Shown in pieces: positions 33,014 through 55,621 of a stretch of 64,000 nt of DNA. This DNA is from an uncultured Lachnospiraceae bacterium. GTDB lineage: Bacteria > Bacillota > Clostridia > Christensenellales > UBA1242. Both the position numbers and the translations under genes were made by a program. The stretch lies in NCBI GenBank assembly GCA_964606505.1, contig CAZSGM010000001.1:18859-82858 (forward strand). Reading direction: 5' to 3'. The stretch's first letter is position 1, and every line of letters begins with the position of its first letter. Below the pieces are notes generated by a model, which was given only the letters and a program-made list of their open reading frames with translations, did not search any database and had not been told where the DNA came from.

Positions 33014-34059
33014 AATGCCATCTCCTTTACATATTCATCTTGAAAGATTTAAGTTTTAATATTATATATGAATTTCACTTTTTTGTCAAGTCATTTAGCG
33101 ATATTTTTAAGTAAATGCGCCAAACTTATTTTTTTGCGCCACCCCGCGCTAAAAAACAACCTCAATCGACGGCGCAAAACAGCCATCTTTTCTCACCTAA
33201 ACATTTGCAGTTTCTCCACCCTCAGGTTTTGCCAAAAAGTCAGTATTTTCGGGCTTTTTAGCGTGTAGTTATCCACAATTGTTCAACTTTTGTGGATAAC
33301 TTTACACGCTTTAAAAATCAATAAAGCTAACACTTTTAAAAAGCATTATTTAAAGCTCGCTAAACCTCGTAAAATCCACACTTTAAAACTCTTTCTTTCT
33401 TAAAAAATCAGTAAAAACATCAACGGCGAAGCAAGAAAAAACTCTGCCGTTTTATCCTTGCGTAGGTTTAAGTTTTAAATGTACTAACCACCCTCACGGC
33501 TTAGACTAAGTACAGGTAAAACCTGCTTTTTTTACATTCAAATGCACACGACTGAGTTTTTAAACTTTTTGTTGAGCGTTGCGCAAAACATCCAACGCGC
33601 CCAATGCCGCAGCCCTAATGCAGGCAAACTTCCCACACCACACCACAGTGGACAAACCCAACGCACAACGCCGCTGTGGATAAGTCCGAGCGCAAGACTT
33701 AACGCTACTGTGAACAACTCATAAAAGTATACTACACATTTATGAAACTACACAATTGTGGATAACCGCTAAAACACTCACTACAACCGCCTCTGCCCCT
33801 CCCTAAAGCTAGACAAGACGACCTCCCATTTCAAACATCACTCTCACTAATTTTATTATTTAGCAAGCTCAAATATTCACACTAAAAAGCTTCGCGATAA
33901 ACCACTACAAAAAAAAGCGGAAAAAGTCCGCAGCAACTAAAAAAAAACTTAGAAGCCTACACTCTTTCACGCTTTGAAACTTATGTTATCCGCTTAAACA
34001 GAAACTGCCCGATTTCCACAAATGTGGATAACTCAACTTTTTGCCCCACAAGAAAAATG

Positions 34060-34073
34060 GTTAAGTACTTAAC
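34060..34073. promoter_or_regulatory. perfect 14-bp palindrome GTTAAGTACTTAAC (unassigned binding-site candidate), copy a
   Basis: Minus-strand context is AAAAATAGTTAAGTACTTAACCATTTTT. A DnaA box lies 29 bp away. Confidence 0.6.
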
Positions 34074-34346
34074 TATTTTTGCCGCCAAAAAACATACGCG
34101 TATTACACAATTTACCCTATGATACTCTTGCAAAAACATAGTATTTATGCGGGGTGTAGGCATTTAGGCACAATACAAATTCTTATCTGCATCCACTGAT
34201 TGCGTTAACAAGTTTTTGGGGAGTTATCCACATTCTCAATAAAAACAGTCTTTTATACCCCCCTGTGGAAGAGATGTGAATAAATCGTCTACAAGTTTAA
34301 ATTGTAAACATTTTATTGCCTTCAAGTTTAAATATTTTAAAACATT

Positions 34347-34355
34347 TAGTAGTAG
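34347..34355 (+). other. TAGTAGTAG, a candidate DnaA-trio element next to an AT-rich direct repeat
   Basis: Three 5'-TAG-3' triplets 22 nt from the box pair at 34378/34400. Upstream, CAAGTTTAAAT occurs twice (34291-34345). Confidence 0.35.
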
Positions 34356-34516
34356 TGGTGTTTGTTACAAAAAACACTTATCCACAATTGTTTAACATAT
34401 GTGGATAAGTAATTTTAGAAAAATTTGCACCCAAAATTTTTGCCGCCAAAAAGCAGAAAATTCAAGAGAATGTTCCACTTTAAAACTGCAAAATATGAGC
34501 CTAACAAATGTGCATT

Positions 34517-35635
34517 TTAGTTAATTATGCGCACAGGAAGGATGAGGAAAAGATACCCGTCCCCTTCAAATGGCTTAATAATGCACGGAGCGATTGGAGT
34601 TGTAAAATTAAGTGTTATAAACTCGTCGTTTACCACCTTCAAGCACTCGATAAAATAGCGTGAGTTAAACGCCGTTGTCAAATCAACGCCATCCAAAGAA
34701 ATTGTAACATTTTCGTGGATGTTTCCAATTTCACTGTTCGACGAAATAGCCAAAGTTTTGTCCTTAATTTCAAACTTTGCTATGTTGTTTCTTTCGACGC
34801 GCGCAAGCAAACTTGTTCTGTCGAGCGCCTCTTCAAGTTGTTTTTTGTTTACGGTCGTAACCGTAGTAAAATCACCAGACGTAATGAGGTTATTATAATT
34901 AATAAACTCCCCGTCTAGCAAGCGAGAAATGATGACCGCGCCCTCTTGCTCAATCATCACGTATTGCTTTTGGAAAAATACTTTTATGCTCTCGTCTTTG
35001 TCGTCGATAACCTTGGTTATTTCAGACAAACTCTTAGCAGGAACGACAAACTGCGCCTCGCTAGTTGTGTACAAAATTGGCTTTTTAGCTATACTCATCC
35101 TGTACCCATCGAGTGCGACAACATTGACCTTATCGCTAAAAACTTCAAAGAAGCACCCCTTGAATAGTGGCCTTGCGTCGTCAAGCGAAACGGAAAAAAT
35201 CGTCTTGTTAATAGCGTCCACAAAGTCGTCTTTGCTAATCTCAAAGTACTGCTCGTTTGAAATCTTTTGTATATCAGGAAACTCCTCAGCATTCAAGCAT
35301 TGCATATAACCCACACTGTCAGTATATGCAAGCTTCAACTGATTGTTTTCACTAACTTCCAAAACAATTTGCTCGTTTGTAAGTTTTCTAACATACTCAC
35401 TAAAGAACTTACCGGGAACAACAACCGTTCCTTCAAGTTTTACGTCAGCCTTAATCTTTGTCTCAATCATCAACTCAAGATCTGTTGCGCTCAACTTCAA
35501 GCAATCAGCCTCAGCAACCAACTTAATTCCTTCCAAAATCGGATTAGTTGTTCTAGTTGCAGTTGCTTTGATAACCTTCAAAACTGCATCAGCGAGGTCA
35601 AGCCCATCGCATATTACTTTCATTCGGGTATTCAT
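34517..35635 (-). CDS. dnaN: DNA polymerase III beta sliding clamp
   Basis: Start set to ATG (MNTRMKVICDG), 5 nt after AGGAG. Three-domain clamp length (372 aa) with C-terminus LFLILPVRI. Confidence 0.9.
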   Translation of the reverse strand: MNTRMKVICDGLDLADAVLKVIKATATRTTNPILEGIKLVAEADCLKLSATDLELMIETKIKADVKLEGTVVVPGKFFSEYVRKLTNEQIVLEVSENNQLKLAYTDSVGYMQCLNAEEFPDIQKISNEQYFEISKDDFVDAINKTIFSVSLDDARPLFKGCFFEVFSDKVNVVALDGYRMSIAKKPILYTTSEAQFVVPAKSLSEITKVIDDKDESIKVFFQKQYVMIEQEGAVIISRLLDGEFINYNNLITSGDFTTVTTVNKKQLEEALDRTSLLARVERNNIAKFEIKDKTLAISSNSEIGNIHENVTISLDGVDLTTAFNSRYFIECLKVVNDEFITLNFTTPIAPCIIKPFEGDGYLFLILPVRIIN

Positions 35636-35795
35636 AGTTTCTCCTAAAAAATTCAAATCATTTTAGCATACTTTCGTTTTTCTGTAAAGCATTTTTGCCC
35701 AACTTTTCAAAATTTCTTCATTTTTTTTGGCGCTACAGGAGTTGAATTTTTTATTTTTTTTAAATAATAACCTGTATTATTATTGTCTGTGCAAA

Positions 35796-35956
35796 TGTGG
35801 ATAAATTTTGACGTAACCACAATATATTGTGTCATAACTCCTTAAAATCAACCACAGTATACAATATATAGTTTTTCAAAATGTGCATATCTCGGTGGAG
35901 AATTCCACATTTTTTGCACATTTAACTAACATTTTCAATTTTTCGGGTGTGGATAA
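35796..35956. promoter_or_regulatory. two perfect DnaA boxes (oriC part 2, dnaN-proximal)
   Basis: TGTGGATAA at 35796-35804 and 35948-35956. Confidence 0.75.
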
Positions 35957-35988
35957 CCCGATTTTGAACCGCGTTTTTTGGAAAAATA

Positions 35989-36002
35989 GTTAAGTACTTT
36001 AC
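35989..36002. promoter_or_regulatory. 13/14 variant of the palindrome (GTTAAGTACTTTAC), copy b
   Basis: Same 5' flank as copy a (GTTTTTTGG..AAAAATAGTTAAGTACT). A DnaA box lies 33 bp upstream. Confidence 0.5.
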
Positions 36003-36059
36003 GAAATTTGGCGAAAAATATTTTTTTTTGACTTTTTCAAAAAAATCAATTAAATTTGG

Positions 36060-36087
36060 TTGACTTATTTTTGAAAATCGCTATAAT
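36060..36087 (+). promoter_or_regulatory. orphan SigA-like promoter firing into the AT-rich array
   Basis: TTGACT (36060-36065), a 16-nt spacer, TATAAT (36082-36087). No ORF downstream. Confidence 0.4.
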
Positions 36088-36120
36088 ATAAAATTTTATT
36101 ATTTTTAGTTAATTTAGTTT

Positions 36121-36149
36121 TTAGAATTTAAAAAAATTTTAAATTCTAA
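36121..36149. repeat. 13-bp-arm perfect inverted repeat
   Basis: TTAGAATTTAAAA-AAA-TTTTAAATTCTAA. Confidence 0.85.
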
Positions 36150-36239
36150 ATTCGCGGAAGTTCGGCTCTTCAAAATAAACGGAACCTAAAATTGTAGCGT
36201 CTTTTAGTTGAACTCATCGCCAGTTGCGCAAGTTTTTTT

Positions 36240-37115
36240 GTGTGTTATTTAAGTACTAATAATATGTTAAGCTTGTTTATTTAATTGTTACTCATAATTT
36301 AGTAAGTAATTTTATTTTATTTCAGCACTTACTTATAATCATTACTTAAATACTATTAATACAATCTTTACTTAATTATAATATATAATATTGCAAATAA
36401 TAAGTCAAGTAATTTTATATTATTAATTAATAATTATTTATTGTCTAAATTATTTTGGTTATACTAATATAATATTAAGTACTTTTATTAATGTTATACT
36501 TATTTTATTATAAGTACTAACTTAATACACTTACTTATTTTTTTATTCGTACTAATTATAAGGGGTTGCATAATGCAGCGTGCTATCGCTTTTTATACTC
36601 ATACAATATAGTGAGTAATTATACTTATATTTTTTACTTATAATATTATAAGTTAATATTAATTTTTATATTTAAAATAATATGCATATATAGTACTATT
36701 ATATTATTACTAATACTATATTAAGTATTAATATGTTTTGTTTACTTTAATAATAGATATTACTAAAAATATTAAAGTACTTATAAAATGTTAAGTATTT
36801 TATATATTATTTTGTTATTATATAATTATATAACGTATATATATTAATACTTATTATATTATAAAAACTATATTATTTATTATACTCATAATATAATAAG
36901 TACTTAATTATTATACTACTTATAATATTATATAAACTAACATATTACTGTATTTATAATATTATAAGTTTAGATATATAATTATATCTTTACTTAATAT
37001 AAGTACTAAAATAGATAAGTACTTACAATATTATAAGTACTTATTTTATTTAAGTACTAAAATAATATAACGTATTTAAATATATATTTATTCTTATTAT
37101 ATTATTAGTACTAAA
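36240..37115. repeat. AT-rich AGTACT-core iteron array, block 1
   Basis: AGTACT starts at 36252, 36478, 36513, 36692, 36776, 36899, 37002, 37018, 37036, 37053 and 37107, mostly within (A/T)TAAGTACT(A/T)A. Confidence 0.8.
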
Positions 37116-37494
37116 ATAAGACAATGGGCAAACAAAATGCCGACTAAATTTTGCCTGATACAGTTTTATTTGGTTCATATGCTTATTTTGTGTCTACTGC
37201 ACCATACCCATTTGCAACGGCGCACACGATGTCGTGGCAGATTATACCATACTCCATTGCGGTTATGCAATTATTTTCTGCGTTGCAATCAATTGCTGCA
37301 TTGTAACCAATCAACATACTACAACTAATCGGCGTACCGCAACCAATTATGGCAGCACAACTGATAGCCGAACTGACAACTAAACCGACAGATGAACTAA
37401 CAGTGAACCGACAGCTAAGTTACAATCAACTCCATGTTGTTGTTAGCAATCAAACTTAAATTAACTATTATGCGACAATTAACTATTCCGCGAT

Positions 37495-38200
37495 ACTTAA
37501 TTAAAATTTACATGCAACTTATTTTATAAGTAATAATAAGTTATTAGGTACAAATATTATTTAAGTACTTAACATATTATTTGTATTAGCTAATAGTAAT
37601 AGTTAAAAATATTATATGTACTTATTATATATGAGTAAATAAAATATTGTAATACAAATATAATGTGTTAACATAAATTATTTTGAGTATTAAATTAATA
37701 TTAGTACTTAAAATATTATTAAAAATAAAATAATATGTATAAGTCTATTATATTATCATAAAATTATTGGAGTACTAATAATAAAGTAAGTACTATTATT
37801 AAGTATAATAAATATTATTAGTACTAAAAAATTTATGTACTAACAATTTAATAAGTACTAAATTATGTAAATACTGATAAATTAATAAGTACTTAAATTA
37901 TATAAGTAAAAAAATGTAAAACGTACGAATTATACATAAGTACAAAAAATATATAACGTAATAATATTATATGATTACGAATAATATAGAATGAACTAGT
38001 ATAAATAAGTACTAATAACTTAATAAGTACTAAAATATTGTAGTACTAATAATAAAATAAGTACTACAACTAAATAGGTACTAGAAATATATTGATATAA
38101 TAATATATTGTACGTAAAAATGTTGTTCGTACTAGAAATTATAACACTAAAAATAGTTTAAGTACGTATAAATTAAATTAGTAATAAAATTATAAGTGCC
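37495..38200. repeat. AT-rich AGTACT-core iteron array, block 2
   Basis: AGTACT starts at 37564, 37703, 37771, 37789, 37820, 37854, 37888, 38008, 38026, 38042 and 38060. The site at 37560-37573, TTTAAGTACTTAAC, matches the palindrome at 13/14 positions. Confidence 0.8.
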
Positions 38201-38435
38201 AATGTAAAAACAAAAGATGCGTAATTATATAATTTATTTTGAGTAGAAACAACAAGACAAGAACTGCATAAAAATTAATTGCGTACCATATGAAATTAAA
38301 TCACAAATGAAAGTTTAATACTCATCAAATAAATTTTAGACAATTAAGTAAAAAAAATATAGCATCACTAAAAACACACTATTTCAAATACAAAAATAAA
38401 AAGCAAAAAATCCATAATTCATTACAATTCTAGAC

Positions 38436-38464
38436 TTGACTAATTTGTGGATAAGTGGTATAAT
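38436..38464 (+). promoter_or_regulatory. dnaA promoter with a perfect DnaA box in the spacer
   Basis: TTGACT (38436-38441), a 17-nt spacer containing TGTGGATAA (38446-38454), then TATAAT (38459-38464). The dnaA ATG is 7 nt after the -10. Confidence 0.7.
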
Positions 38465-38470
38465 CAAGCT

Positions 38471-39829
38471 ATGGATAATAAGATTTTGAAAGGTTGGGAA
38501 AACGTCCTAACACGAATGGCTACAAACATTTCAGCCGTCAGTTTTGATTTATGGTTAAAACCGCTTGAGGTAATCGACTTAAAAGACAACGCAATCATTC
38601 TATCAGCACCAAGTGTTGTTACAAAAAGTCAAATTTTAAAAAATTTTAAGGAAGAACTTTTGAACGCAATTTCTGCAGAGTTTGAGAATGTTATGGGTTT
38701 TGAGCTGTTTACACCTGAAGAGAAGGAAGAGTACTTAAAATACAATAAACCGTTTGAAGAGGAAATACAGCAATCGACTGCGCCTAACTCGCTCGACAAC
38801 TTCAACCCAAAGTACACGTTTGATAACTTCGTCGTCGGCAAAAGTAACCAGTTTGTTTACACGGCGTGCAGGGCGGTTGCGGAAAACCCCGCAATGCGTT
38901 TTAACCCGCTGTTCATTTACGGGGGCGTTGGACTTGGAAAGACCCACTTGTTGCACGCGATAGGTAATTACATAAAAAACAACCTAAAAGACAAAAAAAT
39001 CGTCTACGTAACTTGTGAAAACTTTATCAACGACTATGTTTATGCGCTCAAATTCAACTCATCAAACGATACAATCATAACAAACTTTAGAGAGAAATAC
39101 CGCAACGTTGACGTTCTAATGGTTGACGACATACAGTTCATTTCTGAGAAAAAAGCGTTGCAAGAGGAATTTTTCCACACATTTAACGACCTTTACCAAA
39201 AAAACAAGCAAATTATCATTAGCTCAGACCGACCACCGCGCGAAATTTCAGCACTTGAGGATAGATTGAAATCGAGGTTTGGAAGCGGACTTATTCAAGA
39301 TATACAAAAACCTGACCTTGAAACCCGAATTGCTATCTTGGAGAAAAAGGCAACAATTGAAAATTACAACATCGAAAAAGACGCGATTAAGTTTATCGCA
39401 GAAAGAGTTGACTCAAACATTCGTGAAATGGAAGGGTTCCTATCAAAAGTTATTTTCTTTAGTTCGCTTCTAGGTAAAGATGTGGCAACAGTTGATGACG
39501 CTCAAGAAGCACTTAAAAATTACATTGAAACAAACAAAGAATCATTAAGCACTGACAGGATTATTCACGTCGTTTGTGATTACTTCAATGTTACAAAAGA
39601 CGACCTAATTGGCAAAAAGAAAACAAAAGAAATTGTAACCGCTCGCCAAATTTGTGTTTATCTCATAACAGAAATGATGGATTTACCATTGACGGCAATT
39701 GGTGAAATTTTCGGCGGAAGAGACCATACAACAATAATTCATTCACGCGATAAAATCGAAGAAATGGTTAGAAATAAGACAAACGTAAATGTTGCGGTTA
39801 ACGACCTTAAAGCAATGCTTGAAAACTAA
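38471..39829 (+). CDS. dnaA: chromosomal replication initiator protein DnaA
   Basis: Walker A GGVGLGKTHLLHAIG, sensor motifs, and C-terminal HTH ..GRDHTTIIHSRDKI. The ATG at 38471 is preferred over the track GTG at 38447, which lies inside the promoter. Confidence 0.92.
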   Translation: MDNKILKGWENVLTRMATNISAVSFDLWLKPLEVIDLKDNAIILSAPSVVTKSQILKNFKEELLNAISAEFENVMGFELFTPEEKEEYLKYNKPFEEEIQQSTAPNSLDNFNPKYTFDNFVVGKSNQFVYTACRAVAENPAMRFNPLFIYGGVGLGKTHLLHAIGNYIKNNLKDKKIVYVTCENFINDYVYALKFNSSNDTIITNFREKYRNVDVLMVDDIQFISEKKALQEEFFHTFNDLYQKNKQIIISSDRPPREISALEDRLKSRFGSGLIQDIQKPDLETRIAILEKKATIENYNIEKDAIKFIAERVDSNIREMEGFLSKVIFFSSLLGKDVATVDDAQEALKNYIETNKESLSTDRIIHVVCDYFNVTKDDLIGKKKTKEIVTARQICVYLITEMMDLPLTAIGEIFGGRDHTTIIHSRDKIEEMVRNKTNVNVAVNDLKAMLEN

Positions 39830-39909
39830 TGTGTAGACAAAATCCAAATTACACAAAAAAATATTACATCACTTAAAAATGGTAAAAATCTTAAAAAAAC
39901 ACTAAAAAG

Positions 39910-39931
39910 CACGTTTTTAACGTGTTTTTTT
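39910..39931 (+). terminator. intrinsic terminator after dnaA
   Basis: CACGTT-TTT-AACGTG followed by T7. Confidence 0.6.
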
Positions 39932-40196
39932 GATGTTTTTACACATATTTTTTGAAAATTACGCAATTTTTAATAGTAAAAAAATAATATGTAGACAATT
40001 TTTTTAAGGTGTTTACCACTAATTTCATTGCCATTATAAGTGCATTTAAATCAATTAAAAAATTCTTGTCGTTTTTTTTTGCTGTATTATTTTTTTTAAT
40101 AAGTATAAATTATCAATTAAAAGAATTAAAAATTATATTCAATATTTTTCATGAAAAATCTAGCTTAATTTCAAAAATAGAATATTCAAAAAAATA

Positions 40197-40225
40197 TTGT
40201 ATTTTTCTATAAAAAATGGTATAAT
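40197..40225 (+). promoter_or_regulatory. extended -10 promoter of mnmE
   Basis: TTGTAT, a 17-nt spacer, TGgTATAAT (40217-40225). The ATG is 7 nt after the -10 and there is no SD. Confidence 0.55.
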
Positions 40226-40231
40226 TTATTC

Positions 40232-41575
40232 ATGGAAAATAATGAAAAAACAATAGTTGCAGTTGCAACTCCAATTGGAAGCGCGGGCGTCGGGATTGTT
40301 CGTTTGAGTGGCAGTCAAAGTTTTGAGATTGCGCAACAAATGTTTAACAAAACAATTTCGCAGCCGCGTTATATGTATTTAGGAAAAATCAAAACAGAAA
40401 AACTTGATGAATTTGGTTTTGTAGTTTACTTTAAGGCGCCAAACTCATATACAGGTGAAGATGTTATCGAATTTCAAGTACATGGTGGTGTACTAATATT
40501 AAATGAAGTCGTTAAGCAATGTTTAAAACTTGGGGCGACGATGGCGGAGCGTGGAGAGTTTACAAAGCGGGCGTTTTTAAACGGCAAGGTTAGTTTAAAT
40601 GAGGCTGAAAGCTTGATGGATTACATCAATGCACAGTCGGATGCTGAATTAGTTGCAAGCAAAAACTTGTTAAATGGCGCATTTTCTACGCAAATCAATG
40701 ATTTTATCGACAATTTAAAGGATTGCTTGGCACAAATAAATGTAACACTAGATTATCCTGAGCACGATGATGAGCTAAAAACAGCACAAAATATCAAAAA
40801 ATTGCTGCAAAACCTTGAAATTAAGGTTGAAAAACTTATAAACTCATATAAATATGGGAAATTAATCAAAAACGGAGTCAATGTTTGTCTAGTTGGCGAA
40901 CCGAATGTTGGAAAGTCATCCATTATGAACGGGTTAATGAATCTTGACGTTGCAATTGTTACCGACATTGCGGGCACAACAACGGACGCCATTAAAGAGT
41001 CCTATATATATAAGGATATAAGATTTAACATTATTGATACTGCAGGCATACGCGAGAGCAAAAATGTTATTGAGCAAATTGGAATTGTAAGAACGAAACA
41101 AAATATTGATTTGGCTGACTTGGTTTTGTGTGTATTTGATTGCTCAAACATTTCTAACCTTGAGGCAATATTACAAGAAACTCAAAATAAATCGCGTTTA
41201 CTTGTTTTTAATAAAAAAGACCTTAAAAATGACCAAAATTTTGATAAAAACGCATTAAAAAACGAAAATTTCATTGAAATTAGCGCAAAAAACAGTGAGG
41301 ATATCGCCGCGCTAAAAGAAAAAATTTATTCAACAATTATTAGCGACAACTTCAACCTTGACTCGTTCGTGATTTTAAACCAGAGGCATTATGAAATGTT
41401 AAACTTGGCGCGTGAGGCAATTGAACGTGCGGTTAGCAACATTGATATTGTAACGCTTGATTGCACGGCTTGCGATGTTATGGACGCATATGGTGCGCTT
41501 GCTGGTATCGTGGGGCACGGCGATATAGAAGAAATAATTGACACTATTTTTTCAAAGTTTTGTTTAGGCAAATAA
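40232..41575 (+). CDS. mnmE: tRNA modification GTPase MnmE
   Basis: G1 motif GEPNVGKSS, DTAGIRE, and the C-terminal CLGK. Confidence 0.9.
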   Translation: MENNEKTIVAVATPIGSAGVGIVRLSGSQSFEIAQQMFNKTISQPRYMYLGKIKTEKLDEFGFVVYFKAPNSYTGEDVIEFQVHGGVLILNEVVKQCLKLGATMAERGEFTKRAFLNGKVSLNEAESLMDYINAQSDAELVASKNLLNGAFSTQINDFIDNLKDCLAQINVTLDYPEHDDELKTAQNIKKLLQNLEIKVEKLINSYKYGKLIKNGVNVCLVGEPNVGKSSIMNGLMNLDVAIVTDIAGTTTDAIKESYIYKDIRFNIIDTAGIRESKNVIEQIGIVRTKQNIDLADLVLCVFDCSNISNLEAILQETQNKSRLLVFNKKDLKNDQNFDKNALKNENFIEISAKNSEDIAALKEKIYSTIISDNFNLDSFVILNQRHYEMLNLAREAIERAVSNIDIVTLDCTACDVMDAYGALAGIVGHGDIEEIIDTIFSKFCLGK

Positions 41576-41696
41576 TTGATAAATATTCTTTTAAAATGCA
41601 AAAGCTGTAAAAATTCAAAAAAAACGATAAAAATCAAAGAAAAAGCATCAAAAAATGCGTTTTTTGATGCTTTTTATCGCAAAAACGGAGGAAAAT

Positions 41697-46315: not shown

Positions 46316-46365
46316 TATGCTCAATACCATTAATATGTATTCAATGTGTACTTATTTAAAGTTTA

Positions 46366-46395
46366 AAGATTGACAAATGTCAATCTTTTTTATTT
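46366..46395 (+). terminator. intrinsic terminator after parB
   Basis: AAGATTGAC-AAAT-GTCAATCTT followed by a T run. Confidence 0.75.
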
Positions 46396-46969: not shown

Positions 46970-46985
46970 TGTTTCACGTGAAACA
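46970..46985. promoter_or_regulatory. parS site 1 (perfect consensus)
   Basis: TGTTTCACGTGAAACA. Confidence 0.9.
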
Positions 46986-47559
46986 ATGTTGATTGCGGTT
47001 GTAGGCGTTGGGTGTTTTCATATTAGAATAGGACAAACAGGTAGGGCTTGGCATTTTGTAAGGTGTTTTTATTGCGCAGTGTACACTGAGTGAAACATAT
47101 GTTTAATTAGAATAAGTATGCTTAATAGGACAATTACGCTATGTATACTATGAGTTCAAATAAAATAAATAGATTATACATAATAACATACACGTAGCAT
47201 GCGGCATATAGTGTATAGCACGCAATATAATACATAATGAATAATAGACAATACAAATAGAATATATAATATTTAATGTATAATATGTAATTTATAATAC
47301 ACATTATACAACATAGAGGATATAAAATGTAAAAATGCTACGCAGTAATGGCTGAATGCTATAACGTATATGGTATTGCTATGCTTACATTGTATTTTGC
47401 AAGTTATAAAACAATTGTTGTAATATGTAATATATAGCATATAGAACACACTATATTAAATAATCCGCTTTATATTATTACTACTGTTGTGTTTAATGGG
47501 TGAACACTGCTGATAATTGATTTTGCAATTGACTACATATTGTGCAGTTTTCGTGAGGA

Positions 47560-47575
47560 TGTTTCACGTGAAACA
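47560..47575. promoter_or_regulatory. parS site 2 (perfect consensus)
   Basis: TGTTTCACGTGAAACA. Confidence 0.9.
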
Positions 47576-48081
47576 AAAGAAATAAGAATGGATGTGTCTT
47601 TGGCAAAAAGTGTGCATTTATGCAGGTTTTATAGGTGTTTATGCTGCACTTATTCTGCATTTAAGATAAATACAATTGAAGTTTTGTAAAATAAACGCAT
47701 AGGCTAAGATAGTTTATATTAAAACAAATATATAAAATAAATAATGAAGCATTAATCATAAAAAATGTTTAATGTTAGTATCTAAACAGTTTGTCTTGCT
47801 GCGAGGTTTAAGTATTATATATTCTTTTATTGTTTGCGTGCTTTAATTGAATGCGTGCTCAACATAAATGATTAACCCGAGCATAAAAATGAATGCAATT
47901 TCAGTGGTATGTAAGTATATAAAGCGTTCGAGTGTTTAAGTAAAGAAAAAAGACGTTGCAAAATAGTCGCATAATGAGGTTTAAATGTGTTCCGCGATTA
48001 GTGTTTTTAATTACGAGTTGTATTACAGGTTGATTTGCCAAAATCGCATAAAATCTACCTTTTTGCGTCTTTTTTTAACCT

Positions 48082-48097
48082 TGTTTCACGTGAAACA
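48082..48097. promoter_or_regulatory. parS site 3 (perfect consensus)
   Basis: TGTTTCACGTGAAACA. Confidence 0.9.
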
Positions 48098-48949
48098 GTT
48101 GTTATTTGGGGTGTTATTTGAGAAAAAGTAGGACGATTTGACGTATATTTTTTTACTGTGGCTGTGGGTTCACTGCCCTATTTATATTGCGTCAAAACTT
48201 ACGTAAAAAATGTTGATAAGGTGTTCAAATTGTGCTTATCAACGGCGAAATAATTAATAAGCAGTAAATCGAATAAAAAATGACCTTAACAGGCTTTAAT
48301 ACATCAAGTGATGTTTGATTTTGTTGAAAGTTGCCAATTTGCAAACTATTTTTCTTGAAATATAGAAGTAATTTGCGATATTATCCCCCGCTATTCTTCA
48401 AAATAACCCCTAAAGTGGCAAAAATCAAGTTTTTAACAATTTAATCTAATTATATGACATATTTTGTTTTATTTGGCGGTAAGTTAGTATTTATTTCTGC
48501 TTTATATGGGGAATTATTCGCGTTATTTATTCATAATGGTGTTAATTTTATCTTATTTTGGGCTAATTTGCTTATTTTGAGTTTATTTTTTAAAAAAAAT
48601 AAACAATTACGCCATAATTTTATGCAAATAATCATATAAAACGAAAATTTAATAATTATTATAATTTTTAAATATATTTTTTATTATTTTATTATTTTTT
48701 TTGCATTTTAGTTAAAAAAAATGACATTTTTGATGTGGATTTGTTTATATTAAGTCTCAAAAATCGCAAATTATGGTAAAATTGGATATAATTAGCATTA
48801 TATTGCTTGAATAAACGGCTTTTGCATTTTTTATAATGCCCTTAGTCATGTGAATTGTGTTTCTATGCTTTATTGAGACGCATATTTTTGTGTTTTTGCA
48901 CTGGAATTTTGGCAAATTGCGCCTTTTTATTGTTAAAAAATAATAGTAG

Positions 48950-49013
48950 TTATCCACAATTATATGCACAATTTGGGTGGTTTCAGGATTATTAGTGGGC
49001 AAAGTTATCCACA
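48950..49013. promoter_or_regulatory. two perfect DnaA boxes, same orientation
   Basis: TTATCCACA at 48950-48958 and 49005-49013. Confidence 0.65.
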
Positions 49014-49377
49014 TTGAATTAATGAAAATGTGCATAAGTTTGAAATATGTTAATTACTTTTTAATAAATTTAGGTTTATTAATATGCGGAAATGGGTACA
49101 AAAAGTGCAGTGAAATGCTGCAAATGCTAGAATTTAATGATTTTTGTCCTATTTCAATATACTTATTGTTAATATTTGAAATATTTAATAAAAATGGCGT
49201 ATTTACTGACGTCTTTAATTGTTGAATTTTTCTATTTTTTATTATTTTTGGCAAATTATTGTATTAATTTATCATTAGATATGTGGAAAAATGGCTTTGA
49301 TTATGGCTTTTGTGTATGTATAAAGTTTTAGCTTTATTAATTTATCAACCATATGTTGACAAAATGGGCAAAAAATA

Positions 49378-49415
49378 GTTAAGTACTTAACCAAAAAAAT
49401 AGTTAAGTACTTAAC
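49378..49415. promoter_or_regulatory. tandem pair of perfect palindromes GTTAAGTACTTAAC, copies d1 and d2
   Basis: Located at 49378-49391 and 49402-49415, centres 24 bp apart. Context AAAAAATAGTTAAGTACTTAACCAAAAAAATAGTTAAGTACTTAACT. Confidence 0.65.
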
Positions 49416-49805
49416 TAAAATTGAGCGTAAAAATTCGCTGAGGGATGAAAATGTTGTCAACATAAGTTTTGGATGTGTTGATGTATTTGTAGGTTTAACA
49501 TTGTAACTGCGTTTTTGAGTACAATGTTGTAATTGCGTTAATCCGTGTCTAGATTGAGGCGATTGTTACTTAGATTTCAACAATTTACTCGCGTATTGTT
49601 GCAGTTAGGTGGTAGTTTATTCGTGTATTTAGCTCGATTATTTTGGTTTGGGGTTGGGTTACTTTACTCTTTGGTTTGGGTACACATTTTTTGCTATATT
49701 ATTACTGGACAGGATAATTTTGTTATAGTTTTAAACTAGATTGTGATGGTTTGGGGCTGCATAAGCGAGGCGCGGGCTCGATTGCGACAAGTAACATATA
49801 ATTAC

Positions 49806-49834
49806 TTGACATTTTTCAGAAAAACGCGTATAAT
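49806..49834 (+). promoter_or_regulatory. consensus SigA promoter of greA
   Basis: TTGACA, a 17-nt spacer, TATAAT. Confidence 0.75.
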
Positions 49835-50023
49835 ATATACGCAAAATATGGGCAGAGTTGCTTTTTGTGAGCACTTTTAATGGTAGTTGGTCAGTAGCAA
49901 ATCATTTTTTGTAATGAATGCGTATGTTTACGCGTTTCTTTGTAGCGGCGCAAATTTGAGGCGTTGGGTGGTTTGTGATTGAGTTTTGACTGGTGAGAGT
50001 TCCACAGCGGCGATGTTCGCGCA

Positions 50024-50049
50024 AGTGCCAGAACGGCACTTTTGTTTTA
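50024..50049 (+). terminator. terminator-like hairpin inside the greA 5' leader
   Basis: AGTGCC-AGAAC-GGCACT followed by TTTGTTTTA, ending 5 nt before the GGAGG SD. Confidence 0.5.
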
Positions 50050-50066
50050 TTATGGAGGTTATTTAA

Positions 50067-50534
50067 ATGGAAAGTTATTTAACGAGAGAGGGATTTGAGG
50101 CGCTGCAAAGCAGGTTAAACTATCTCAAAACTGATAGACGTAACGAGGTTGCTAAAAAATTGCAGGCAGCTAGAGAAATGGGCGACTTGAGCGAAAATGC
50201 TGAGTATGACTCGGCAAAAGATGAGCAAACTGTCATTGAAACCGAGATTGCTGAAATTGAGCACAAATTGCGTACTTCTAAGATTATTGACGAAGAAGAA
50301 ATTGATACATCTAAAGTTTCAATTGGCTGTACTGTTAAAATTTTGGATATGGAATTCAAGGAAGAATTGGAATACAAAATTGTTGGCTCGTCTGAAAGCG
50401 ACCCTAAAAACAAGTTGATTAGCAACGAATCCCCAGTGGGTTCCTCGCTACTTGGGAAAAGTGAGGGCGACGTTGTAGAAGTTCGCGCACCGTCGGGTAT
50501 GTTGAAATTTAAGATTATTTCAATCACAAGATAG
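50067..50534 (+). CDS. greA: transcription elongation factor GreA
   Basis: 155 aa. GDLSENAEYDSAKDEQ coiled-coil tip and C-terminal globular domain. Confidence 0.92.
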   Translation: MESYLTREGFEALQSRLNYLKTDRRNEVAKKLQAAREMGDLSENAEYDSAKDEQTVIETEIAEIEHKLRTSKIIDEEEIDTSKVSIGCTVKILDMEFKEELEYKIVGSSESDPKNKLISNESPVGSSLLGKSEGDVVEVRAPSGMLKFKIISITR

Positions 50535-50614
50535 GTTTGCTTGCAAACAACGTTTGTACGAGTTTTATAGTGTTAAATAGATAATAATGGTGGCGCATTT
50601 GCCGTGTTAGTATG

Positions 50615-50649
50615 TAGACAAATTCAAAAATGGATTTGTCTATTTTTTT
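50615..50649 (+). terminator. intrinsic terminator downstream of greA
   Basis: TAGACAAAT, a 10-nt loop, ATTTGTCTA, followed by T7. Confidence 0.65.
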
Positions 50650-50838
50650 GAAATGGGCTTGTCAAACTTTCTATAATGGTGCAAAATGCAAATGTGGCTT
50701 TCGGTAAAAAACAATAATAAAACAAAATAGATTTTAAATAACAATAATATATTTTAAGTAAAAATAAAATTTGATAGGCAGAGATTTTATGTCTAAAAAA
50801 TGGCAGTATTAGTTTTTTATGTGCAAAATAATGGCGTG

Positions 50839-50956
50839 AAAAAATATATTTTTTAAGGGCGAAAATTTAGTTTGAAAAAATATATTTTAACTATAAATAT
50901 TGTGCGACGAAAATATTTTTCAGTGTATAAATATCGTGCAAGGAAAATGTATTTTT
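50839..50956. repeat. A/T-tract palindromes and a ~33-bp direct repeat
   Basis: AAAAAATATATTTTTT (50839-50854). TATAAATATTGTGCGACGAAAATATTTTT (50891-50920) versus TATAAATATCGTGCAAGGAAAATGTATTTTT (50924-50956). Confidence 0.7.
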
Positions 50957-52007
50957 ATACAATAAAATTGTCAATGAAAATAGCGCAATAGGAATACAGA
51001 AATTGAGAAAAATAATAAGCAAAACGAGTAAAAAAAAGAGTAAAAAACATGCAAAAAATTTTAAGTGAAAAAATAGGTAAAATACAAGTAAAAAATTAAG
51101 TAAAATAATAAACGGAAAAAATGCAAAAAATATGTGTTTAAATTTAATTTTTTGCGTAAAATTATGGCGTAACTATATATAAAAAATTGAGTGTTCAATA
51201 ATTAAAAATGGCAAGAGAAAATACGGATAAATACAAATAAAAATCTGGAATATTTTTAATAAATAAAATTGGGATGAAATTTATTTTTTTAGTCTGCGAA
51301 AAATAGTTTTACAGTGGTTTATGTTGTATATATTTTAGTATTTTATTGAATAAATAAAACTATTTTATAAATCCATAAAAATGCAGTATAGCTGCAAAAT
51401 TATGCAGCTTACCTGTTAAAATTTGCGTGAAAGCTGTTAAAAATTGCGGGTATGCTGCATTTTACGTGCAAATAATTGTGTAAAATATAAATTTGATATA
51501 TATTTTAATTGTAAATTATATTTTTTTATAATATTTTTTAATTAAATAATAAATATTTTCGTTATATTTTTTTGACGTTGTAAAATTATATTTTTTTGCA
51601 GGTAAATTTATTAATTAATTTGTGATTAAAATAAAATGAATTAATGCGCAATTTTATTTGATTTTATCGGTTTATATTTTAGTGTTATTTTAGGTGTAAT
51701 TTTCAGTATTTTTTATTTTGCGGGGGGAATTGTGATTTTATTTATTTTTGACAGCGTTTATTCTTAATAAAAAGTGTTATTTCTTCGCCGCTTTAATTAT
51801 TTTTTTAGCGATGATTTTTCGCGGAAATTTTAATAAAAAAAATAAGGAATATTTTGTGTTAATAAAAAATAAAAAATCAATATTCATATGCATATTTATA
51901 TTTTGTTTATTTTTCAAATTTAATTATTTAAGGACGCAGAAATTTACTGCGTCCTTAAAAGTTGAAATGATAATTTTTTTTGCGAGTGCATTCAACTTGC
52001 GTGCACG

Positions 52008-52125
52008 GCAAACTAGCCCACTATTGTAAGTAGCGCACACAACAGATTAGTGTACACAGCAAACTAGCGCGCCGTGTTAAATGACGACCGCGACAAACTA
52101 GCGCGCGTAACTAACTAGCGCGCGG
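52008..52125. repeat. four dispersed copies of AACTAGC(G/C)C(G/A)C; the last contains the stop codon of the 427-aa ORF
   Basis: CAAACTAGCCCAC, CAAACTAGCGCGCC, CAAACTAGCGCGCG, CTAACTAGCGCGCGG. Confidence 0.7.
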
Positions 52126-53398
52126 CGTTAATTGTGCGTGCGGCAATAATGAGTAGCGCAACTAGAGAATGTAGTTCCTTGCTGAGTCGCGATTTTTCGT
52201 AAATTGAGCACAGCAACGCCATAAGTTTCGACAGCATCCTACTGCGACTTACAAAATACAAAAGCGGACGTTCAATAACTTTGACCTCGTCTAGGTATTC
52301 GCTAAGCCCAAAATCGTCCTTAAAATACTGGTTCAAGTCCTGCACTAAGTCGTTCAAAATTGCCGTCTCGTATTCATTCAGCCCCTTGTAAGAAACTTGC
52401 GGCGTTGGCTCAATAAGTGGTTGTACTTCGTCGGCACCGTGCCTCCCAAAACTCCCACTTTGCGCGCCAAAACTGTTTTCTTGCGCAAAATCACGTTCGG
52501 CGTGTGTCCCATAACCTTGAGACCCACCTGTGTGCCATCCTCTAAGGTCGTCGTTTCTCGCATTGCCTTGAAACTCATTCATTTCCCAAAACTCCTGTTC
52601 GTGTTGTGCCTCTTGGTTGCGTTGTGCCCCCTGTTTGCTGAGTATGTCTTGTTCGCGCTGTGTGCCTTGTTTAATGTCGTCTTTAATTGCGGGGCTGCGC
52701 TGTGAAGCGTCTTCTGCGCTTGCGTGCGAACTGTTGCTGTTTGGGGCGCTCAAATTGTTGCGGGTTTGAGCGTGCGGGTTTGCGTTGTCAACTACGCTGT
52801 CCGCGTTCGTAATAAATTTGTCGGGGTTACCTGTTGCGTCGGCCGTACTGCCAAAAAGTTTGCTAAAAAAACGCGAGCTACCTGTTGCGCTTGGAGTAGT
52901 GCCAGTGCGCAAATTATTTTGAGTGTGCGAGTTGTTAAATGCAGTGGGCGCACAACCGTCCTCGGGTGCGGACGCGCTTTGAGTTGGCTCAACCCCTTTG
53001 TTTTTGCCGAAAATTTGCGGGACAGGCGTTTTTTTAGTTGTGCTATTTGTTTGCAGGGTCGTGTTTTGTAAATCGTCGTCCTGTCGGGCGTTTCCCGCTT
53101 TTGTGTGCCAGTCGGTTGCCGCATTCTCGCGTTTTTCATTAGTGAGTTTGCCGTTAATTGGTTTGTTATTGGTGCACTCGCCATTAGCGTGGTCGCCGTT
53201 ATTGCCGCCGCCGCTAACCCTCGCGCTGTTTGTGTGCTCGCCATTAATCAGCTCGTCGTTAGTGTGCCCACAGTTAATTTGTCCGCGGTCAGCCCCCTCG
53301 CCGCTCGTGCAATCATTGCGTGCCTCAACGTACGCCTGCGCAAGCATTTCATACTCGCTTTTGTTGTAACCGTCAATTCTGTCGTCGTATTTTTCCAT
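52115..53398 (-). CDS. hypothetical low-complexity protein (N/G/H/T/Q-rich) with a short ordered C-terminal domain
   Basis: 427 aa with internal (I/A)NG.(H/C)TN repeats. Only the last ~90 aa look globular. Higher GC than its surroundings, and many overlapping alternative-frame ORFs. Confidence 0.5.
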   Translation of the reverse strand: MEKYDDRIDGYNKSEYEMLAQAYVEARNDCTSGEGADRGQINCGHTNDELINGEHTNSARVSGGGNNGDHANGECTNNKPINGKLTNEKRENAATDWHTKAGNARQDDDLQNTTLQTNSTTKKTPVPQIFGKNKGVEPTQSASAPEDGCAPTAFNNSHTQNNLRTGTTPSATGSSRFFSKLFGSTADATGNPDKFITNADSVVDNANPHAQTRNNLSAPNSNSSHASAEDASQRSPAIKDDIKQGTQREQDILSKQGAQRNQEAQHEQEFWEMNEFQGNARNDDLRGWHTGGSQGYGTHAERDFAQENSFGAQSGSFGRHGADEVQPLIEPTPQVSYKGLNEYETAILNDLVQDLNQYFKDDFGLSEYLDEVKVIERPLLYFVSRSRMLSKLMALLCSIYEKSRLSKELHSLVALLIIAARTINAAR

Positions 53399-53653
53399 AT
53401 TTTACCTCTTACAAAAATATATTTTAAAGGGGTTGTAATTATGCAAAAATTTAATTTTATGAATATTTTGCAAAGCGAAAGCATAATATGATATAGCCAC
53501 TAAGCACACAAAAACTCCAACATTTTACGATTTAATGCGGCGCTTTTATTTAAAATGCGTGTTTGAAAAGCCAGTAAAAACGTCATTTTTGCCCTAAAAA
53601 CCGCTGTTTTGAGAAAAAAAATTACTAAAAGTGTATTTTTTTGCTAAAAACTG

Positions 53654-53682
53654 TTGACAAATTTTTTATTATATAGTAAAAT
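53654..53682 (+). promoter_or_regulatory. SigA promoter of the tRNA operon
   Basis: TTGACA, a 17-nt spacer, TAAAAT. Confidence 0.7.
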
Positions 53683-53702
53683 AGTGGAGTCGTTAAGAAT
53701 AT

Positions 53703-53779
53703 CGCGGGGTAGAGCAGTTTGGCAGCTCGTCGGGCTCATAACCCGAAGGTCGTTGGTTCAAATCCAGCCCCCGCTACCA
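53703..53779 (+). tRNA. initiator tRNA-fMet (CAU)
   Basis: CGCGGGG acceptor with a 1-72 mismatch and three G-C pairs closing the anticodon stem (TCGGGCTCATAACCCGA). CCA encoded. Confidence 0.9.
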
Positions 53780-53789
53780 TTTTTTTTAT

Positions 53790-53866
53790 GGCGGTGTAGC
53801 TTAGCTGGTTATAGCGTCCGGTTCATACCCGGAAGATCAAAGGTTCGAATCCTTTCACCGCTACCA
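53790..53866 (+). tRNA. elongator tRNA-Met (CAU)
   Basis: GGCGGTGTAGCTTAGCTGG... with anticodon loop TTCATAC. Closely resembles Bacillus elongator tRNA-Met as recalled. CCA encoded. Confidence 0.8.
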
Positions 53867-53888
53867 GCGTGGGCGCATTGCCCAAGTT

Positions 53889-53963
53889 GGCCCTATGGTC
53901 AAGCGGTTAAGACACCACCCTTTCACGGTGGTATCGTGGGTTCGAATCCCGCTAGGGTCACCA
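53889..53963 (+). tRNA. tRNA-Glu (UUC)
   Basis: GGCCCTATGGTCAAGCGGTTAAGACACCACCCTTTCACGGTGG... Cloverleaf checked by hand. CCA encoded. Confidence 0.88.
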
Positions 53964-53967
53964 AATT

Positions 53968-53999
53968 CTCACTTTCTAAATAGAAAGTGAGTTTTTTTT
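53968..53999 (+). terminator. intrinsic terminator of the tRNA operon
   Basis: CTCACTTTC-TAAATA-GAAAGTGAG followed by T8. Confidence 0.85.
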
Positions 54000-54324
54000 A
54001 TATTTTAAGTTCTTGCGCTGCTTGGTTTATACCGCAGGTTGATATATTACTTGGCTTATATTATGGGTTGATGTGCTTGCAGTTTTATCTTCAAGCTGTT
54101 GCGCTAGTTGTATAACTGGAAATATTGGCAGCGAACAAACAAAGGAATTCAATTCTAAAGTGCTGCGCCTGCCTTGCTAGCTGCCTTTGTGGTTTGGGAA
54201 TTATGGTTGCGGCTAGTTTTACAAATTCGTTCCGCTTTGCGGTTTTGCAGGCAGGCAAAATGCTTGACTTTCGCGGCAATGTGGAGTAAAATGGAAATGG
54301 TTAAATGACCAAATGGAGTTAATA

Positions 54325-55146
54325 ATGGATATTACCGATTTAACTTGGAACCCTTGGCACGGCTGCCATAAGTGTAGCGAGGGCTGCCAAAATTGTTATG
54401 CGTATTTTTTAGACAAAAGGTACGGCAGAGATACTAATCAGGTTTGTAGGAATAAGTCAAACTTTGATTACCCAATAAAAAAGGACAAGAGCGGGAACTA
54501 TAAGTTGCCGAGTGGGTCGTTTGTCCGCGTGTGTATGACAAGCGACTTCTTTCTCGAAGAGGCCGACGACTGGCGCGGCGAGGCGTGGGATATAATTCGC
54601 AAAAGGTCAGACGTTACCTTTTCATTGCTTACTAAAAGGGCAAACAGAATTAAGGATAATTTGCCAGACGATTGGGGCGACGGCTGGGACAATGTCCAGT
54701 TTGCGGTTTCTGCAGAAAACCAAAAGCGAGTGGACGAAAGAATTCCGTACCTTTTGGACGTTCCTGCCAAGCATAGGTGGATAAGTGTAAAACCCTTTAT
54801 TGGCGAAGTTGATTTGGAGCAATACCTTTCAACCGGCGGAATAGAAGCTGTCCTTGCAGGCGGGGAAAACTATATGGGTTGTCGTCCGCTCCACTTTGAA
54901 TGGGTAAAAAAGTTGCACGACCAATGTGAAAAATATGATGTCCAATTAATTTTTGGGCAAACGGGAAACGTTTTTGTTAAAGATGGGGTTGAATACAAAA
55001 TTAGAAACAGAACCGACCAAATGATACAGGCGGTTAAGTCGGGGCTCAATTATCCGCACTTGGATATTGATAAACGCGTTAACGAGATTTTAGAAATTAG
55101 GGAAAAAATGAAAAACGCTAGGATGAAAAAGACTGATTGTGATTAA
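54325..55146 (+). CDS. DUF5131 (phage Gp37/Gp68 family) protein
   Basis: TWNPWHGCHKCSEGCQNCYA N-terminal Cys cluster is typical of the family. Start at ATG, 6 nt after GGAG. Confidence 0.75.
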   Translation: MDITDLTWNPWHGCHKCSEGCQNCYAYFLDKRYGRDTNQVCRNKSNFDYPIKKDKSGNYKLPSGSFVRVCMTSDFFLEEADDWRGEAWDIIRKRSDVTFSLLTKRANRIKDNLPDDWGDGWDNVQFAVSAENQKRVDERIPYLLDVPAKHRWISVKPFIGEVDLEQYLSTGGIEAVLAGGENYMGCRPLHFEWVKKLHDQCEKYDVQLIFGQTGNVFVKDGVEYKIRNRTDQMIQAVKSGLNYPHLDIDKRVNEILEIREKMKNARMKKTDCD

Positions 55147-55350
55147 AATATTAGAGTACATTACAACTAACAATAAAAAATGCGAAATTAACGGCTGCGA
55201 GATATACGAAAAAAGTATGTAAGCAGTCTTTTTTAATGGAAAAATAAAAAAAATAACATTTTTTTTATAAACAAGCAAAAAATATTTGGAATAAAATAAT
55301 AAATGTGTTAAAATTGCATAAAATACACACAGTAAGGAGTGATAAAAATG

Positions 55351-55364
55351 GTTAAGTACTTAAC
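55351..55364. promoter_or_regulatory. perfect palindrome GTTAAGTACTTAAC, copy e
   Basis: Lies 6 nt upstream of the G12 tract, with imperfect DnaA boxes 29-39 bp downstream. Confidence 0.6.
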
Positions 55365-55370
55365 TAAATT

Positions 55371-55382
55371 GGGGGGGGGGGG
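55371..55382. repeat. G12 homopolymer tract
   Basis: Twelve consecutive G in a low-GC genome, 240 nt upstream of the GLUG protein gene. Confidence 0.9.
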
Positions 55383-55392
55383 CGTCTCAGAC

Positions 55393-55411
55393 TAATCCAC
55401 AATGTGGACAA
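55393..55411. promoter_or_regulatory. inverted pair of one-mismatch DnaA boxes
   Basis: TAATCCACA-A-TGTGGACAA. Confidence 0.4.
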
Positions 55412-55621
55412 ACGCGAAAGGTAGAAACGGGCGAAAAAGCCAGTGTTTCTGCGGGTTGCAGCAACCGCGCCACCCGCAAAACAAACACGAGCGTTTGCAA
55501 ACAAACTCATATTACTAGATATAAAAACAGTTACTTAAATAGGAGTTGCCTCAAGGGAGCAACTAACAAGAAAACAGGTATAATTAAACAAAACAACCGC
55601 CGCGCTACATTAGGAATACTA

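Follow-up and report, generated by a model that had tools for sequence, protein, structure and literature searches.

The window analyzed here is the whole stretch of 64,000 nucleotides taken from contig CAZSGM010000001.1 of an uncultured Lachnospiraceae bacterium (GenBank assembly GCA_964606505.1), and its positions 33014 to 55621 carry the predicted replication origin (oriC) and the partition genes of this organism, separated by long non-coding gaps. The left border of this region is formed by rpmH (32879-33013, reverse strand), which was read from the sequence as the gene for ribosomal protein L34 (an L34-type basic N-terminus, 44 codons) and has rnpA directly upstream according to tblastn synteny. 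To the right of rpmH, Pfam domains identify dnaN (34517-35656, reverse strand; DNA_pol3_beta domains 1 to 3), which is inverted relative to dnaA (38447-39829, forward strand; Bac_DnaA, Bac_DnaA_C and DnaA_N), followed on the forward strand by mnmE (40232-41575), mnmG (41655-43574), parA (44619-45398; AAA_31/CbiA), parB (45329-46315; ParB_N, HTH_ParB and ParB_C) and greA. The gaps were numbered from left to right as gap 1 (33014-34516), gap 2 (35636-38470), gap 3 (39830-40231), gap 4 (43575-44624), gap 5 (46316-50066), gap 6 (50535-52114), gap 7 (53399-53702), gap 8 (53964-54324) and gap 9 (55147-55621). Together these nine gaps sum to 12,261 of the 22,608 bases (54.2%), which reproduces the value of about 54% given in the first-pass annotation of this DNA.

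The sparsity of this origin zone is real and unique within the genome. With coding density gauged as the cover by open reading frames (ORFs) of at least 100 amino acids (aa), and not by a gene caller, ORF cover was 46.5% in the region compared with 85% in the first 33 kb of the window, which had been described as tightly packed by contrast, and 83.5% genome-wide; low density is therefore not a general property of this genome. Among 1,056 sliding windows of 22.6 kb placed on all 13 contigs, the region had the lowest ORF cover (median, 84.6%), and the lowest windows of this set away from the origin locus were still covered to approximately 70%. Both of the longest ORF-free stretches in the genome (3,751 and 2,780 bases) fall inside the region; outside of it, ORF-free stretches have a median length of 198 bases, with the 99th percentile at 1,185 bases. 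The strong strand skew initially reported for the gaps was also found (+0.225 to the right of the origin and -0.174 to the left), but it is not special to the gaps, as other non-coding DNA on the same arms has matching values (+0.207 and -0.229, respectively), suggesting that the gap DNA has long been resident in its present orientation.

The possibility that the AT-rich gaps are chimeric joins or mis-collapsed repeats of a metagenome-assembled genome (MAG) was also considered. The assembly consists of 13 contigs (1.34 Mb, 41.5% guanine plus cytosine (GC), 98.7% complete) and, among the nine sister species of the genus used for comparison (DnaA 82-93% identical), the assemblies of G003 and G006 break between the conserved oriC core and dnaA, with that of G006 ending inside the AGTACT repeat arrays described below. 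However, the region lies inside a 321-kb contig, no gap contains N, the same layout is present in independent assemblies of other species, and animal gut metagenome runs from 4 studies contain 70-100% of the words sampled from 43500-52200. Furthermore, the sign of the skew changes smoothly across the region, and the cumulative G-C minimum of the 321-kb contig was located at 37518, inside the dnaN-dnaA gap. An artefact of assembly or binning is thus extremely improbable.

Functional density in the gaps would be normal if they held many small proteins or new non-coding RNAs that escape ORF cut-offs, Pfam and Rfam. Filling of the gaps by other genetic codes, which the first-pass annotation had put forward as an outcome that would speak against it, was tried; reassignment of TGA to tryptophan or reassignment of TAG lifted ORF cover only from 46.5% to 49-54%, while read-through of TAA was rejected as uninformative because it opens any AT-rich DNA. 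The search with profile models that had been proposed at the same time, a six-frame Pfam search of the five large gaps with X at stops, found no family and only two chance-level matches (E 0.017 and 0.081), and Rfam, run at gathering scores and with E values of up to 1, gave nothing in the region beyond three tRNAs. An order-4, three-periodic Markov model trained on 380 long ORFs of this genome, under which real gene pieces score a mean of 0.27 bits per codon and off-frame or antisense pieces a mean of -0.50, scored 83 of the 84 gap ORFs of at least 30 aa as non-coding; the only coding-like ORF encodes 44 aa (37183-37317, reverse strand; score 0.181). ORFs of at least 50 aa from the origin neighbourhoods of six relatives had no tblastn match in any gap, and tblastx against the sister species found matches only where blastn did, in several frames and on both strands, which indicates that the conservation is non-coding. 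The gaps are therefore not filled by other codes, Pfam or Rfam families, coding potential or conservation at the protein level.

In favor of such hidden content are the gene-like score of the 44-aa ORF, a conserved orphan promoter that is directed into gap 2, the leader of approximately 230 bases upstream of greA, and gap 9, which stands as non-coding only in part since approximately 274 of its bases (55348-55621) extend the next gene in the 5' direction as an open frame that follows a G12 tract. Yet the island that contains the 44-aa ORF is unique to this species, the conservation between sister species is not specific to a reading frame, and repeat-rich DNA of 18-30% GC is poor material for structured RNAs; taken together with the negative small-ORF scores and Rfam searches, this makes a normal functional density rather improbable.

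What the gaps do share are short sites. As the first-pass annotation had claimed, DnaA boxes recur in them, with 14 perfect copies in the region compared with 0.9 expected, distributed over gap 1 (8 copies), gap 2 (3 copies), gap 4 (1 copy) and gap 5 (2 copies). The boxes in the first two of these gaps form clusters that flank a single gene, dnaN. Gap 1, which adjoins rpmH and would be the positional homologue of oriC1, has all 8 of its perfect boxes within 33269-34400, including the inverted pairs 33269/33291 and 34378/34400, as well as one copy of a 14-base palindrome at 34060; only short islands of this gap align with G008 and G004, and neither a six-frame Pfam match nor a coding-like ORF was found in it. 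The second cluster (3 boxes, 35796-38446) includes a perfect box at 38446 that is carried by the dnaA start. Inspection by eye for a DnaA-trio or an AT-rich unwinding element beside the boxes showed, as candidates, TAGTAGTAG at 34347-34355 and AT-rich runs in the oriC core.

This core (35736-36149), delimited by blast alignment to the sister species, contains DnaA boxes at 35796 and 35948, a one-mismatch copy of the palindrome at 35989, an inverted repeat that could form a hairpin and an invariant TTGACT-17-TATAAT promoter (36060-36087), which is the orphan promoter that points into gap 2. The core is 73-77% identical in G008, G003, G006 and G004 and was found in 9 of 9 sister genomes overall, although in the other five species of the genus only its first 70-100 bases are present. 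In these five more distant species, in which the orientation is dnaA and then dnaN, the first 70-100 bases are located in the dnaA-dnaN spacer beside the dnaN start, which shows the core to be the homologue of oriC2. An exact scan of metagenome contigs with a 30-base piece of the core gave 0 matches. With regard to orientation, dnaA and dnaN are co-directional in G005, G002, G007, G009 and G001 and divergent in at least three genomes (this genome, G008 and G004); the core stays beside dnaN throughout. This pattern suggests that inversions have occurred more than once, each with one breakpoint within the spacer at the origin.

Based on the two box clusters around the inverted dnaN, the region is predicted to be a bipartite oriC. 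A bipartite oriC around one gene is an established pattern in Firmicutes (PMC7561715); in Clostridioides difficile, oriC1 occupies the rpmH-dnaA spacer and oriC2 the dnaA-dnaN spacer, and unwinding needs both (PMC7561715). The locus described here resembles these origins, including incAB/incC of Bacillus subtilis and oriC1/oriC2 of C. difficile, in that box clusters flank one gene near rnpA-rpmH and dnaN, in that it is located at the GC-skew switch, and in that the core lies beside the dnaN start as oriC2 does. By comparison, the order is rpmH (reverse), dnaN (reverse) and dnaA (forward), so that dnaN and not dnaA is found between the clusters, and in the second spacer the core is separated from dnaA by 2.3 kb of repeat arrays. 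The two spacers are 1.5 and 2.8 kb long, while those of bipartite origins in model organisms are much shorter.

The arrays are located in gap 2. A left array (36240-37115) of approximately 20% GC is built of TwAGTACTwA cores with periods of 16-18 and 34 bases, and a right array (37496-38200) is partly inverted relative to it (inverted repeats I1-I3); between them is a single-copy island of normal composition (37116-37495), which contains the 44-aa ORF and for which no homologue was found in the 9 sister genomes (37100-37500). The dnaN-dnaA spacer has 23 copies of AGTACT, compared with a mean of 1.3 and a maximum of 8 in a Markov-1 simulation, and the only two clusters of at least four AGTACT in the genome are both in gap 2. 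The units are degenerate (17 and 34 bases, 64-82% matches), with recurrent AGTACT spacings of 16-18 and 34 bases. In G004 the core lies directly against dnaA, and the arrays and island of this genome (2.3 kb) are therefore an insertion or expansion.

The sequence TwAGTACTwA is also the center of the 14-base palindrome, GTTAAGTACTTAAC. The claim that this palindrome is shared among gaps was borne out: gaps 1, 2, 4, 5 and 9 together contain 5 perfect copies and 2 with one mismatch, both of which are in gap 2; 16 perfect copies were found genome-wide, all of them intergenic. The conserved oriC core includes one palindrome-like site that hardly varies between species, and the arrays, which are confined to this genus, were apparently amplified from this single site. 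AGTACT arrays beside dnaA or dnaN were also found in the origin-region stretches read for G008, G006 and G001, and the TwAGTACTwA core is common to the arrays of four species, with flanks that show no specificity beyond AT-richness. Two 99-aa ORFs beside palindrome copies were tried as candidate palindrome-binding repressors and rejected, as they look spurious and overlap the duplicated GC-rich repeats on either side of a phage-like island. This locus (G000:C1:153070-157290, where G000 is this genome) consists of two identical repeats of approximately 420 bases, each followed by the palindrome, around a 3.5-kb island. A ParB-like gene and further genes of phage type are found in the island, which probably represents an integrated element whose attachment flanks were duplicated.

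Regular short tandem repeats of this kind are also found in plasmid or phage iterons and centromere arrays (Rep iterons, parC, tubC), but the only neighbours of the arrays are dnaN and dnaA, and a blastn search of the arrays and island against 72,556 plasmids and 50,697 phages gave no match; this origin for the arrays was rejected. The strict AGTACT triplet was also tried as a trait of the family and rejected (1 of 61 genomes).

Another possibility is that the arrays and the palindrome belong to a dedicated protein-binding or methylation-reading system, whose adaptive expansion would control initiation or anchor the origin. The near-invariant site in the core, the shared repeat core of four species, the restriction of AGTACT clusters to the surroundings of dnaA and dnaN (genome-wide here, in the origin stretches of the other three species), the intergenic location of 16 of 16 perfect palindromes and the conserved position of the origin-gap copies in G008 and G005 are in line with it. 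However, approximately half of the sister species have no such arrays, a cognate gene was not identified, the array sequence matches no plasmid or phage iteron, and the flanks of the repeat core lack specificity. In addition, most palindrome copies elsewhere belong to a 5' module of surface-protein genes, indicating that the palindrome is not origin-specific. An adaptive system of this sort is therefore conceivable but doubtful.

Short palindromes enriched at origins are read by dedicated proteins in other bacteria, as are GATC by SeqA at Escherichia coli oriC and the ram sites by RacA in B. subtilis. The functional analogy lies in a short palindrome that is over-represented near the origin in closely spaced copies; unlike in these systems, the sequence here is unrelated, neither a reader nor a methylase was identified, half of the sister species lack the arrays and the palindrome also heads surface-protein genes. 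Slightly more tentative still is a specific, so far undescribed candidate reader of the TwAGTACTwA arrays and the core palindrome, DNA-binding or methylation-dependent, which would time initiation or tether the origin, with the palindrome also gating poly-G surface-protein genes; if it exists, such a reader would work like GATC/SeqA or ram/RacA, yet be unrelated to both.

The surface-protein module is present in gap 9 as the 5' module of the next gene (55348-55621, forward strand), where a Shine-Dalgarno sequence, an ATG, the 14-base palindrome and G12 are followed by a frame that is open, one base off the ATG, into a 593-aa ORF. Nine loci carry the same arrangement of AGGAG, 7-8 bases, ATGGTTAAGTACTTAACTAAAT(T) and then G12-13 (window 55332-55621 and G000 C1:249168, C2:30435, C2:202516, C4:27038, C4:49624, C4:62897, C5:25897 and C6:14832), with the palindrome forming codons 2-5 of the module. 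At 8 of the 9 loci the frame one base off the ATG is open for 391-1023 codons into a large ORF, the ninth being cut by a contig end; at the window locus, the only one where this was checked, the 593-aa ORF at 55622 has an open frame without a start codon before the annotated ATG. The nine-locus module looks like a switch for a family of surface proteins that operates by slippage on poly-G, either as phase variation or as programmed slippage.

To the right of the origin, the distance of parA and parB from the skew minimum is approximately 7-9 kb. In gap 5, 3' of parB, a parS cluster (46970-48097) consists of three perfect TGTTTCACGTGAAACA sites with starts at 46970, 47560 and 48082. All three perfect copies of the 16-base parS consensus, TGTTNCACGTGAAACA, fall within 1.1 kb, and none was found elsewhere in the genome. 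Arrays of 4-7 parS sites are also found directly 3' of parB in G008, G004, G005 and G017, and the spacing of 0.52-0.59 kb in this genome compares with approximately 40-200 bases in most sister species. Origin-proximal parS clusters are known from Pseudomonas aeruginosa (parS1-4) and Myxococcus xanthus (22 sites) (review PMC7022226), and the cluster described here is similar to these in having perfect 16-base sites approximately 10 kb from the origin, beside parAB and kept in relatives. It differs from them in that all sites of the genome are in one gene-free block 3' of parB with wide spacing.

A second conserved island of gap 5 (48950-49420) combines two DnaA boxes (48950 and 49005) with two palindromes in tandem (49378 and 49402), and its bases 49341-49420 are 82% identical to G008. 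The gap ends with the promoter and leader of greA (49806-50066, forward strand), in which TTGACA-17-TATAAT is located at 49806-49834; the block with the promoter and that with the ribosome-binding site can be aligned to G004. Beyond greA, synteny with G008 and G004 is lost, and gap 6 (50535-52114), which borders a variable region, is filler of 24% GC in which a conserved island was not found. The other genes of the region are those for a DUF5131 protein, two ORFs without a Pfam family, and two tRNA-Met and one tRNA-Glu (53703-53963, forward strand), identified by ARAGORN and Rfam.

Gap 4 (43575-44624) carries a DnaA box at 43859 and a palindrome at 44172 whose position is kept in G008 and G005. 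Neither this genome nor any of the nine sister genomes has the gene rsmG (PF02527), which is thus lacking in 10 of 10 genomes of the genus; outside of the genus, it was found in 7 of the 9 further genera in the family and in all 12 further families. Wherever the position was compared (G010, G012, G017, G022, G027 and G030), rsmG was located between mnmG and parA, so that gap 4 occupies the slot of the lost gene. A search for an RsmG remnant in gap 4 gave a best tblastn E of 0.76, compared with 0.37 for the reversed sequence.

The gaps could be mostly eroded origin-proximal genes (rsmG, noc-like genes, recF/gyrB neighbours or mobile elements) that have no present role and have not yet been deleted. 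In support of this explanation, genomes of the family are small (0.7-1.6 Mb, compared with 1.4-3.2 Mb in the other families of the order), the genus has lost rsmG, and the AT-rich filler shows no constraint and has an equilibrated skew. G008 and G004 also have one or two small genes between dnaA and mnmE that are absent here: a conserved gene of 166-168 aa in both species, and in G004 an additional 296-aa gene with a DNA-binding look, judged from its N-terminal sequence alone; the corresponding interval in this genome (39830-40231) is 402 non-coding bases. On the other hand, no Pfam remnant was found in any frame of the five large gaps, the RsmG trace was not above the reversed-sequence null, and the neighbourhood ORFs of relatives match no gap; orthologues collinear with gaps 1, 2, 5 and 6 were not found in the relatives examined either. 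Decay would also have to be confined to the origin, as coding density is normal genome-wide, and the largest blocks, the AGTACT arrays, are repeat expansions and not former genes. Moreover, long gaps are found at the same positions across species with DnaA only 82% identical, in genomes that otherwise delete DNA efficiently. Genomes that are both reduced and rich in pseudogenes include Mycobacterium leprae and those of recent insect symbionts. The genome described here is similar to these in its small size, its AT-rich non-coding DNA and the loss of one gene, rsmG, but differs in that low density is confined to one 22-kb zone of an otherwise normally dense genome and recognisable remnants are lacking. 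The decay of a large set of origin-proximal genes, one of two explanations offered by the first-pass annotation, hence holds for gap 4 only, and as an account of the gaps in general it is unlikely.

The second explanation offered there was an expanded non-coding origin domain that the organism maintains, and comparison with relatives bears on both parts of this claim. Among named DnaA sequences, the nearest relatives (53-59% identity) come from MAGs of uncultured Clostridia and of 'Christensenella sp.'. The gene order rpmH, dnaN (reverse), dnaA (forward), mnmE, mnmG, parA, parB and greA is common to this genome, G008 and G004, with dnaN-dnaA gaps of 2.8, 2.3 and 0.85 kb and parB-greA gaps of 3.75, 2.1 and 1.7 kb, respectively. 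The non-coding share from rpmH to greA is approximately 56% here, 47% in G008 and 36% in G004, these being approximate values obtained by subtracting gene lengths from tblastn coordinates. Only small islands of the gaps align between species, the remainder being unalignable AT-rich filler. Outside of the genus, the GC-rich outgroup families G022 and G027 of the same order have compact canonical origins with 90-96% ORF cover, and families G024, G020 and G030 have a single AT-rich gap of 1.1-2.0 kb beside dnaA or rpmH.

Taking these results together, the region is probably a gene-poor origin and partition zone of a gut Clostridia genus with reduced genomes, in which conserved short sites are embedded in fast-evolving AT-rich filler. 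A non-coding origin domain as such fits the lack of coding signal, the origin and partition sites, the presence of the layout in sister species and its absence from the two GC-rich outgroup families, but its being maintained fits only in part, as gap lengths and arrays vary. Several points weigh against this interpretation. The check for cross-species conservation showed conserved short motif islands, but a filler without detectable constraint and gap lengths that differ approximately twofold between species, so that a positive function for the bulk of the DNA is not supported. The AGTACT arrays are absent from G004, G002, G007 and G009, and the strict triplet with 16-18-base spacing was found only in this genome among 61 family genomes, which indicates that the arrays are dispensable for origin function. 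One gap, gap 4, occupies the slot of a lost gene, and genes that are very small or atypical, as well as new non-coding RNAs, could have escaped scoring by ORFs and the Markov model. The patchy distribution of the filler and arrays argues against an essential role, while their restriction to dnaA and dnaN and their derivation from the core keep a regulatory role alive.

The sparsity, the lack of coding signal, the position and conservation of the sites and the comparative pattern were observed directly, while we infer where proteins would bind, where the DNA would unwind and what the filler and arrays may do. The non-coding DNA is made up of two layers. The first layer consists of conserved cis sites, namely the two DnaA-box clusters, the core of approximately 400 bases, the three parS sites, the palindromes and ordinary promoters, and the second of AT-rich filler evolving too fast to align, which in this species and some sister species includes TwAGTACTwA arrays. 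DnaA may bind both box clusters and loop out dnaN, with the duplex being opened at the conserved oriC core, while ParB would load at the parS cluster approximately 10 kb to the right and spread over mostly gene-free DNA. The filler could serve as a spacer or buffer that is tolerated or favored around sites that cannot be deleted. Under this gene-poor zone model, growth of the zone would have occurred through inversions flanking the origin, loss of rsmG and repeat expansion, and not through the decay of many genes. The recognisable parts are all of known kinds; what appears new is an inverted dnaN as the putative looped-out gene, the long spacers and the arrays.

Other observations on base composition and sparsity were made in this family. 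GATC is present in only 213 copies in 1.34 Mb, compared with approximately 5,000 predicted from base composition, an avoidance typical of exposure to a GATC-cutting restriction system. AGTACT is near expectation genome-wide in this genome, but piled up at the origin, while it is wholly absent from G013 (60 kb around dnaA) and G010 (33 kb), where approximately 10-20 copies were expected; this contrast within the family suggests different restriction-modification histories. In G013, which represents a sister genus, a stretch of 13.5 kb, average in composition (32% GC) and located approximately 21 kb from dnaA (G013:C3:115160-128666), contains a single ORF of at least 100 aa (117 aa, 3% cover); it was not filled by TGA or TAG recoding, neither tandem repeats nor Rfam matches were found in it, and a six-frame Pfam search of its first 5 kb gave no match. 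A 5.2-kb ORF-free stretch was also found in G005 (G005:C46:10001-15257).

Annotation pipelines and MAG quality checks will meet zones of this kind, inside which assemblies of sister species break. Genomes of approximately 1 Mb usually keep little non-coding DNA, yet approximately 12 kb persists around the origin across this genus. The genus therefore offers a natural series of origins in which the same short sites are combined with differing spacing, repeat load and gene orientation, and this series may be useful for asking what share of origin function belongs to the sites and what share to the spacers, and whether ParB and DnaA prefer gene-free surroundings.

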